Source: a virus. From it: a stretch of DNA of 6,858 nt. Both the position numbers and the translations under genes were made by a program. The stretch spans positions 1-6,858 of IMG/VR virus record IMGVR_UViG_3300011507_000009, one strand, 5' to 3'. The stretch's first letter is position 1; the number at the start of each line of letters is the position of its first letter. The notes under the pieces were generated by a model, which saw only the letters and a program-made list of their open reading frames with translations, made no database searches and had not been told where the DNA came from. This document shows positions 6,359 through 6,462 of the stretch, piece by piece.

Positions 6359-6462
6359 TCGCATAATCCGCCGTTATGTTACGCCTGCCCTACGGGCTGC
6401 GCTGGCCGCAGGATAGTCCCAGCGCAACGGCTCAACATAACGCCGAGCCTCGATTATGCGAA
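6359..6462. other. Forked ~100-nt hairpin made of two inverted dif-like sites: candidate single-stranded XerCD attP, alternatively the packaging-signal hairpin
   Basis: Paired arms are cGCATAATC/GATTATGCg (6360-6368/6452-6460), CGTTATGTT/AACATAACG (6372-6380/6434-6442) and TGCGCTGG/CCAGCGCA (6398-6405/6419-6426). There is a side stem GCCC-tac-GGGC (6387-6397). It begins 10 nt after the Zot stop. Confidence 0.55.

Follow-up and report, generated by a model that had tools for sequence, protein, structure and literature searches.

A forked hairpin downstream of zot as a probable CTX-type Xer attachment site in a filamentous phage with a Pseudomonas-like host

A forked hairpin directly downstream of zot

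The window analyzed here is a whole 6,858-nucleotide (nt) stretch of viral DNA, positions 1 to 6,858 of IMG/VR record IMGVR_UViG_3300011507_000009, and our subject is a forked hairpin at 6355–6465, directly behind the gene zot, which very probably serves as the attachment site (attP) of a CTX-type mobile element that integrates by making use of Xer (an IMEX). The window ends as it begins, 123 nt being shared (6736–6858 duplicates 1–123), so that it represents a circle of 6,735 nt, the genome of a small filamentous phage with a Pseudomonas/Stutzerimonas-like host and no toxin cargo. All core inovirus genes lie on the window minus strand. Since inovirus genes carry the sense of the packaged strand, the single-stranded DNA (ssDNA) of the virion, (+), is complementary to the sequence of the window. 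The zot gene, encoding a pI-like assembly ATPase (Pfam Zot PF05707, E = 9.5e-15), runs on the minus strand from an ATG at 929 through the circular junction to a TAG stop at 6473–6471 (pieces 1–929 and 6471–6858), and the hairpin begins ~10 nt past this stop, where an earlier note on this DNA had placed it. The same note had remarked that the phage encodes no recombinase. Consistent with this, no integrase, resolvase or transposase was detected when the identified genes and 20 open reading frames (ORFs) of ≥62 amino acids (aa), a set smaller than all ORFs of ≥60 aa, were scanned against Pfam and PHROG, and the non-core region of the window is not long enough for an integrase-sized gene.

Anatomy of the hairpin

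The hairpin is built from two inverted copies of one motif: GCATAATC-cgc-CGTTATGTT at 6361–6380 recurs inverted as AACATAACG-ccgagcctc-GATTATGC at 6434–6459. The pattern CGCATAA-N5-15-TTATGTT matches the window twice, at 6360–6380 (+) and 6434–6460 (−), versus an average of 0.00 matches in 200 dinucleotide-preserving shuffles. With Xer arms of 11 nt, on which all central-region lengths given here are based, the copies resolve into two inverted dif-like sites, 6464–6430 on the minus strand and 6356–6384 on the plus strand, lying 45 nt apart from arm to arm with 73 nt between their XerC cores. Site 1 (attP1-like) reads GCTTCGCATAA-TCGAGGCTCGGCG-TTATGTTGAGC on the packaged strand and comprises a XerC-arm mimic (GCTTCGCATAA, 6454–6464), a 13-nt central region (TCGAGGCTCGGCG, 6441–6453) and a XerD-arm mimic (TTATGTTGAGC, 6430–6440). 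Site 2 (attP2-like) reads GCCTCGCATAA-TCCGCCG-TTATGTTACGC on the opposite strand; the complement of its XerC-arm mimic (GCCTCGCATAA, 6356–6366) forms the 3′ strand of the outer stem, and this arm is followed by a 7-nt central region (TCCGCCG, 6367–6373) and a XerD-arm mimic (TTATGTTACGC, 6374–6384). Between the two sites lie the branches of the fork, namely a side stem-loop, GCCC-tac-GGGC (6387–6397), which occurs only in window-type hairpins, and an apical stem-loop (6398–6426) whose 8-bp stem TGCGCTGG/CCAGCGCA (6398–6405 / 6419–6426) closes a 13-nt loop.

Alignment with known Xer sites supports these assignments. The arms of both sites match the Pseudomonas-type dif consensus, AATTCGCATAA-TGTATA-TTATGTTAAAT (PMC6199493), as well as the two attachment sites of El Tor CTXphi, in which attP1 is AGTGCGTATTA-TGTGGCGCGGCA-TTATGTTGAGG, with the 12-nt center TGTGGCGCGGCA, and attP2 is AATGCGTATTA-TACGCCA-TTATGTTACGG (PMC3089051, Table II). 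The XerD arm of site 1 is identical to TTATGTTGAGG at 10 of 11 positions and that of site 2 to TTATGTTACGG, likewise at 10 of 11. The centers measure 13 and 7 nt in the window versus 12 and 7 nt in CTXphi, for which the literature gives an attP2 center of 5–7 nt (PMC4246890).

Folding of 6340–6480 with DNA parameters predicted the forked hairpin on both strands, at -33.4 kcal/mol on the plus strand (z = -4.3) and at -40.3 kcal/mol on the packaged minus strand (z = -6.3), and none of 200 shuffles did as well. In the predicted fold, T-A and C-G pairs lie beside the XerC stem, GAGGCT (6451–6446) forms a 6-nt bulge of the 5′ strand, and CGGCG is paired with the 3′ strand (site 2) except for one G·G mismatch. 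As a control, the attP region of CTXphi from GenBank folded into a XerC stem, a 5-nt 5′ bulge one base past the arm, a partly paired center, a XerD stem and a fork, again more stably on the (+) strand (-43.5 kcal/mol) than on the (−) strand (-37.4 kcal/mol). Every sequence element listed in the earlier note was recovered at its coordinates, including the two inverted copies, the side stem and the 13-nt loop, and the predicted hairpin formed on each strand, more strongly on the packaged one. Two of its details can be refined. The note had held both centers to be too long for a dif site, which is so for site 1, while site 2 exceeds the canonical spacing by a single nucleotide. It had also described a central bulge of 3 nt opposite 9, which is this very loop drawn with other arm borders; in the predicted fold the center is mostly paired, leaving the 6-nt bulge and the mismatch.

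Homologous hairpins and selection on the fold

Relatives were gathered by Zot-based scans of IMG/VR and GTDB genomes, together with GenBank phages. The same post-zot hairpin is present in phage blackswan219-1, in many uncultivated IMG/VR inoviruses, in Pseudomonas and Stutzerimonas prophages, and in the P. aeruginosa phages Pf 36-2, Pf 42-1, NEU2023 and 5a-DAzarov. A whole-window megablast against GenBank phages returned partial matches only, to the bird-swab phages blackswan219-6 and blackswan219-1, which belong to the same lineage as the window phage and have structural genes 86–89% identical to its own. Pf 36-2 and Pf 42-1, two integrase-less P. aeruginosa prophages, belong to this lineage as well, and their annotated 12-nt terminal repeat, TTCGCATAATGT, is the dif XerC arm plus TGT. 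Across 22 distinct hairpin versions, the center of site 1 ranges from 9 to 13 nt, and that of site 2 is 6 nt and occasionally 7. Most of the 78 Zot-bearing genome loci had neither a dif site nor the hairpin near zot; these presumably represent other inovirus lineages that use an integrase. Pseudomonas phage 5a-DAzarov (PQ758391.1) is filed under Caudoviricetes in GenBank; it is actually a 7.3-kb inovirus with zot and the same hairpin.

In an alignment of 26 distinct hairpins (alignment A2), standard base pairs occupy 94% of the cells, and compensatory changes occur in 9 of the 13 inner-helix pairs. Compensatory cells number 62, versus 19.2±4.6 in shuffled alignments, with none of 500 shuffles reaching 62, and the covariation score of 0.328 falls to at most 0.064 when the partners are slid by 1–3 columns. 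Covariation extends into the central region, where three pairs beside the XerD arm vary in concert (GC 13 / AU 11; CG 17 / GC 5; GC 14 / CG 5 / AU 3). Two independent duplex Xer sites would not require such covariation, suggesting that the fold itself has been under selection. The fold is also strand-biased: all 25 hairpins compared are more stable on the gene-sense strand, by a mean of -5.3 kcal/mol (Wilcoxon p = 1.2e-5), with 73 G·T pairs on that strand versus 3 on its complement. This bias points to a single-stranded (+) molecule, although taken alone it cannot separate ssDNA from RNA.

Prophage junctions at dif

In 11 prophages (L083, L087, L077, L043, L092, L086, L017, L019, L130, L132 and L133), zot is followed by the phage-type XerC arm GGCGCTTCGCATAA, which is fused to a canonical host center, TGTATA or TCTATA, and to the XerD arm TTATGTTAAAT. 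The far end of the prophage, where the contig includes it, consists of a host-specific XerC arm fused to the long site-1 center, behind which the remainder of the hairpin follows, its site 2 unbroken. At the insertion, GC skew flips from +0.059 to -0.067 in L083 and from +0.070 to -0.071 in L087, and FtsK-orienting polar sequences (KOPS; GGGNAGGG) converge on it, which identifies the insertion site as the terminus dif. None of the prophages examined had the orientation expected for recombination at site 2. The earlier note had suggested looking for prophage copies whose junctions lie within the hairpin and abut the chromosomal dif, and these relatives have just that arrangement, with the crossover at the border between XerC arm and center of the zot-proximal site.

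The crossover point can be placed on the window itself. IMG/VR contig L121, 98.4% identical to window 6462–5723, starts with host DNA (GGAATATCATGTGAT) joined to the phage at TTCGCATAA|TCGAGG, a join that corresponds to window 6454|6453. In L120, the same host flank is joined to a window-type hairpin. The genome loci retrieved contained nothing matching this flank, which was characterized through a further scan of viral contigs: in L130–L133 it adjoins an AraC-type gene and carries other prophages of the same phage family, at whose far ends dif reads ...TTCGCATAA-TCTATA-TTATGTTAAAT. Together, the L121 and L120 joins and the TCTATA dif place the crossover within TTCGCATAA|TC, window 6462–6452, and XerC cleavage is predicted between 6454 and 6453. 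The phage center starts with TC, as does the host center TCTATA, giving 2 bp of homology. An exact-protein look-up of the replication initiator Rep returned one contig, in free or tandem form only. Tandem copies or arrays at dif are present in L023, L092 and L043.

Comparison with CTXphi

The arrangement closely resembles that of CTXphi. Both phages carry two inverted dif-like sites, with the long center on the (+)-sense site and the short one on the other, and in both the sites lie in a forked hairpin with a 5′-strand bulge one or two bases past the XerC arm. The slot is also the same: attP follows zot (and, in CTXphi, the ctxAB cargo) and precedes a divergent repressor gene, rstR in CTXphi and a repressor-like gene here. 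Neither phage encodes a recombinase. The prophage lies at dif, as seen here in relatives; next to zot a functional dif is restored, the opposite side retains a hairpin remnant, and tandem arrays occur. Several features differ. The XerC arm here is of the Pseudomonas/consensus type (TTCGCATAA), whereas that of CTXphi is of the Vibrio type (GCGTATTA); the hairpin spans ~111 nt versus ~150, with 73 versus ~90 nt between sites; and central homology with the host dif is limited to TC, or to T in some relatives. The host is Pseudomonas/Stutzerimonas-like, Rep is of the gII/Phage_CRI type and not RstA, and toxin cargo is lacking.

Proposed mechanism of integration

Architecture, conservation and covariation of the hairpin, its packaged-strand bias, the dif junctions of prophages and the absence of a recombinase can all be read directly from the sequences, and the hairpin is very probably a Xer/dif attachment site. 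By analogy with CTXphi, the folded ssDNA is likely to be the substrate. We propose the following mechanism, in which XerC-only catalysis, the ssDNA substrate, replicative resolution and irreversibility are inferred from CTXphi. The inverted dif-like sites would anneal in packaged (+) ssDNA, or in (+) ssDNA produced by rolling-circle replication, which is the window minus strand. The outer stem would recreate the XerC-binding arm (TTCGCATAA) and the inner stem the XerD-binding arm (TTATGTT...), with the 3′ strand giving a near-canonical 7-nt spacing and the 6 extra nucleotides of the 5′ strand bulging out. Host XerC and XerD would bind this stem and form a synapse with chromosomal dif, whereupon XerC would cut the 5′ strand between A6454 and T6453 and exchange it with the dif top strand. 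The TC past the cut may stabilize the exchange because it matches the host center TCTATA. The XerD-side halves of the two centers are unrelated, so a second exchange would not be expected, and replication would turn the resulting pseudo-Holliday junction into a prophage.

The predicted product would start with the host XerC arm and the 13-nt phage center, continue through what is left of the hairpin, then the regulatory genes, rep, the coat genes and zot, and end with the XerC arm of the phage followed by the center and XerD arm of the host. A functional dif would thereby be regenerated beside zot, so that further elements could integrate in tandem. The duplex form would mask the site, which would make integration effectively irreversible, and new (+) strands would arise by rolling-circle replication from the replicative form (RF) or from tandem arrays, with Rep needed for this regeneration. 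Such behavior accords with what CTX-type biology predicts, namely irreversible integration, a regenerated dif and phage production via rolling-circle read-out over tandem elements (PMC4246890).

Alternative functions of the hairpin

The alternative nearest to this mechanism is that attP is used as duplex RF in the manner of VGJ- or TLC-type elements, with XerCD recombining one dif-like site and the inverted partner being incidental or regulatory. Site 2 lends it some credit, since in nearly every relative its center is near-canonical (6–7 bp) and its XerD arm good, and recombination at duplex site 1 would yield exactly the prophage junctions seen. Yet site-2 orientation or junctions appear in no prophage: zot always lies beside the regenerated dif, with site 2 intact inside attL. 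The crossover site is instead site 1, whose center of 9–13 bp is unsuitable as duplex according to the CTXphi literature (PMC4246890); in CTXphi, with an over-long attP1 center (12 bp) and an attP2 center of 5–7 bp, neither site makes a proper substrate in duplex form. A duplex attP also fails to account for covariation between the sites that reaches the central regions, and it leaves the 25/25 packaged-strand stability bias unexplained. We therefore regard this route as unlikely. The comparison with known elements leads in the same direction. VGJphi- and TLCphi-type IMEXs and the Xanthomonas phages phiLf, Cf1c and XacF1 are likewise filamentous and integrase-less and integrate at dif via host XerCD; however, theirs is a single duplex attP, and they can excise. 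Two inverted sites, a crossover in the site with the over-long center, and stems that covary and are strand-biased point here to the ssDNA route. Assignment to the VGJ type was rejected, as no crossover falls in site 2, the one site with canonical spacing, and the prophages are oriented opposite to the site-2 prediction. Assignment to the TLC type, in which the duplex attP lacks a proper XerD arm and XerD acts first with a Xer activation factor (XafT), was also rejected, since both sites have XerD-like arms and the junctions lie on the XerC side; an XafT homologue was not searched for.

Packaging and transcription offer two further readings of a long hairpin at this position. The earlier note had raised the possibility that the hairpin is a packaging (morphogenetic) signal, as in Ff phages (f1/M13), whose packaged strand likewise has a long imperfect hairpin in an intergenic position after the morphogenesis genes; stability, strand specificity and the position behind zot all fit. 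A packaging signal acts in cis in encapsidation and would be expected in every close relative, so that the proposal is disfavored by blackswan219-6, whose coat, pIII, pVI and zot genes show 88.8% identity and which yet lacks the whole hairpin. There, the zot stop runs straight into the GGTACC-repeat region with the flank kept, and a search of that phage for the dif-like motif found none. The clean ~117-nt gap indicates that the hairpin is a dispensable, discrete module. In contrast to the Ff signal, moreover, its building blocks mimic XerC/XerD arms and integration splits it, and integrative inoviruses of Xanthomonas use a 20–26-nt hairpin beside ori, apart from attP (bioRxiv 10.1101/2023.12.30.573655). 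A packaging signal in place of an attachment site is thus highly improbable, although a secondary packaging role is possible. An element acting at the RNA level, an intrinsic terminator or 3′ stabilizer of the zot operon transcript, would suit a hairpin 10 nt past the last gene of the operon. However, the stem is not followed by a T-run, a terminator scan returned nothing at 6355–6465, and no Rfam match was obtained; nor would such an element explain the dif-arm sequences, the prophage junctions within the stem or the homology to the CTXphi attP, so that we find it barely credible. Both the terminator and the packaging signal were rejected as sole functions.

The folded region may, on the other hand, have a second job beside that of attP, either as a complementary-strand (minus-strand) origin or in binding a phage or host factor through the apical loop. 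A GG-A-n-A-A-T motif at the border of apical stem and loop is conserved across very different hairpins of the family (alignment A2 columns 64–73). In addition, although Xer needs the stem only, the apical stem-loops of L087 (4860–4895) and L022 (35–65), TCGTCAGG-ACAATGCGCAGCG-CCTGACGG, resemble the first sub-hairpin of CTXphi (L134, 1540–1570), TCGTCAGT-ACCATTGCGCCAGC-ACTGACGG, with z ~6.8 versus shuffles. These two were the only significant cases; local alignment of the window inner fork with CTXphi gave no significant similarity. The window loop, GACTATCCTGCGG, fits the motif poorly, and a promoter scan found nothing at the hairpin. Conservation offers a hint, and a second function of this kind is rather doubtful.

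Several points weigh against a CTX-type attP. Binding by XerCD, cleavage by XerC and an ssDNA substrate are all deductions. The hairpins of alignment A2 were picked by requiring CGCATAA...TTATGCG, which makes the invariance of the outer helix uninformative, and they share a phylogeny, so that the shuffle statistics overstate their independence. Were an RNA hairpin of the zot transcript under selection, its G·U pairs would give the same strand bias as selection on ssDNA, and use of duplex site 1 would leave prophage junctions identical to those of the folded strand. Central homology with the host dif amounts to 2 nt (TC), and to T alone for co-resident relatives starting with TG; under the compatibility rule of CTXphi, by which bases beside the XerC cleavage site pair with the target dif, such pairing would be weak. 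Finally, of the two junctions only attL is seen in L121, whose structural genes form a mosaic when compared with those of the window; no complete prophage of this very genome, with attR as well as attL, was recovered. Weighed together with these points, fold, arm matches, prophage junctions, covariation and strand bias nonetheless support the earlier note's proposal of a CTXphi-style attP used with host XerCD at dif.

Implications for Pseudomonas inoviruses

The CTX type of IMEX is an established class whose further members are RS1, Ypf (YpfPhi) and CUS-1 (CUS-1Phi) (PMC3089051, PMC4246890). Integrase-less P. aeruginosa Pf elements of groups 4–7 (Pf 36-2, Pf 42-1, Pf 97-1 and Pf 17897) have been placed at intergenic sites, with host integrases suggested, in a text that mentions neither 'dif' nor 'hairpin' (Viruses 2023, PMC10675462). 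A survey of classical Pf prophages found integrase-bearing elements only (PMC7549136), dif and Xer go unmentioned in Roux et al. 2019, and we found no earlier report of a CTX-type attP in Pseudomonas in the searchable literature.

With the present hairpin family, a large and diverse clade of Pseudomonas/Stutzerimonas inoviruses would join the CTX-type class, the mechanism itself being already known. CTXphi is reportedly the only system with demonstrated direct integration of ssDNA via a masked, folded dif mimic, and the same route is said to have been inferred for a few enterobacterial phages (CUS-1, Ypf). Integrase-less prophages of P. aeruginosa isolates from cystic fibrosis, for which the 2023 work left the route of integration open, belong to this clade. 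Covariation in the central region and the 25/25 packaged-strand G·T bias provide comparative evidence for selection on the single-stranded fold. The junctions give a rule for locating prophage borders and attP in such elements, and the proposed mechanism predicts irreversible lysogeny, tandem dif arrays and hybrid-phage formation in Pseudomonas. The family further supplies many natural variants for dissecting how XerCD recognizes a bulged ssDNA substrate.

Mosaicism, arrays and cassettes at the zot–attP junction

On its upstream side, the window-type hairpin adjoins no fewer than 11 different sequences, among them different 3′ ends of zot, a pair of small cassettes with ORFs, and host DNA, and the join always falls exactly at TTCGCATAA. 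At the other end of the module, comparison of 6355–6465 with L114–L129 revealed at least three different sequences directly after GATTATGCGA (..GGCGAGTGGTACC.., ..GGCGACTGGTACCATTTTCGCGG.. and ..TGCGCCGGTACC..). The XerC arms at both ends of the module thus act as mosaic breakpoints.

In Stutzerimonas kunmingensis BUN14 (L043, 1–11500), the dif array contains two copies of a 1.46-kb element, both of which carry a hairpin; next come a phage in which 2.34 kb, rep among them, are internally duplicated in tandem, a 52-aa cassette and finally dif, an order that recalls RS1–CTX arrays. The 52-aa cassette, ~186 bp long and encoding an ORF that begins MILTYELVDNPGYEYE..., lies between zot and the hairpin and is flanked by two direct copies of GGCGCTTCGCATAA. 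It is absent from the window and was located in L006 (2106–2310), L012 (958–1160), L021 (639–840), L100, L109 (3126–3330), L043 (11270–11460) and L077 (11190–11380). The cassette starts with the dif-like site TTCGCATAA-TGGAGA-TTATGAAATGA, which has a spacer of 6 bp and overlaps the ribosome-binding site and ATG of the cassette ORF; the slot of the cassette is that of ctxAB in CTXphi. A second, unrelated cassette with a 44-aa ORF (MDDFAIYTGEELRELYNW...) occupies the same zot–attP slot and ends at GGCGCTTCGCATAA (L009, 4200–4386; also L114, L116, L117 and L125). Neither cassette ORF had a match in Pfam or PHROG.

We speculate that the zot–attP junction is an exchange point delimited by Xer arms and a cargo slot for the Pseudomonas inovirus clade, at which dif arrays and rolling-circle read-out might shuffle backbones, attP modules and cassettes. 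This would amount to an integron-like, XerC-based form of gene capture, in which the apical loop shared with CTXphi might have a second function as complementary-strand origin or in factor binding. The suggestion is a tentative one.

Other features of the phage genome

The remaining core genes follow the inovirus pattern. Rep, a gII-like rolling-circle replication initiator, is encoded at 3749–5011 on the minus strand (Pfam Phage_CRI, 1.1e-49; G2P_X_C, 5.5e-15). On the same strand are genes for a G5P-like ssDNA-binding protein (3568–3158), major coat protein B (2934–2746), a TspB/pIII-like protein (2664–1237) and a DUF2523 (pVI/Ace-like) protein (1237–929). A divergent 65-aa ORF on the plus strand (5124–5321; PHROG 5219, E = 3e-22) is a repressor candidate in the position of rstR in CTXphi, and in Pseudomonas phage 36-2 the stretch matched by its DNA bears the annotation 'repressor'.

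Directly downstream of the hairpin lies an array of four GGTACC palindromes (TGGTACCA) at 6224–6352, spaced 34–44 nt apart and including perfect 12–13-nt inverted repeats at 6266–6278/6297–6309 and 6301–6312/6341–6352. The array is kept in blackswan219-6, L004 and L121 and is thus a conserved neighbor of attP, outside attP itself. We consider it a candidate operator array within a putative regulatory region, with a packaging signal or an ori element as further possibilities. One of the palindromes overlaps the ATG of the next ORF.

At about residues 270–330, the pIII/TspB-like protein contains an extended linker of Gly/Asp/Thr/Ser repeats (GGGDTGGGDTGGGDT...GDGSGGDGSGG), a type that separates pIII domains, which makes antisense frames of this gene look like long ORFs.

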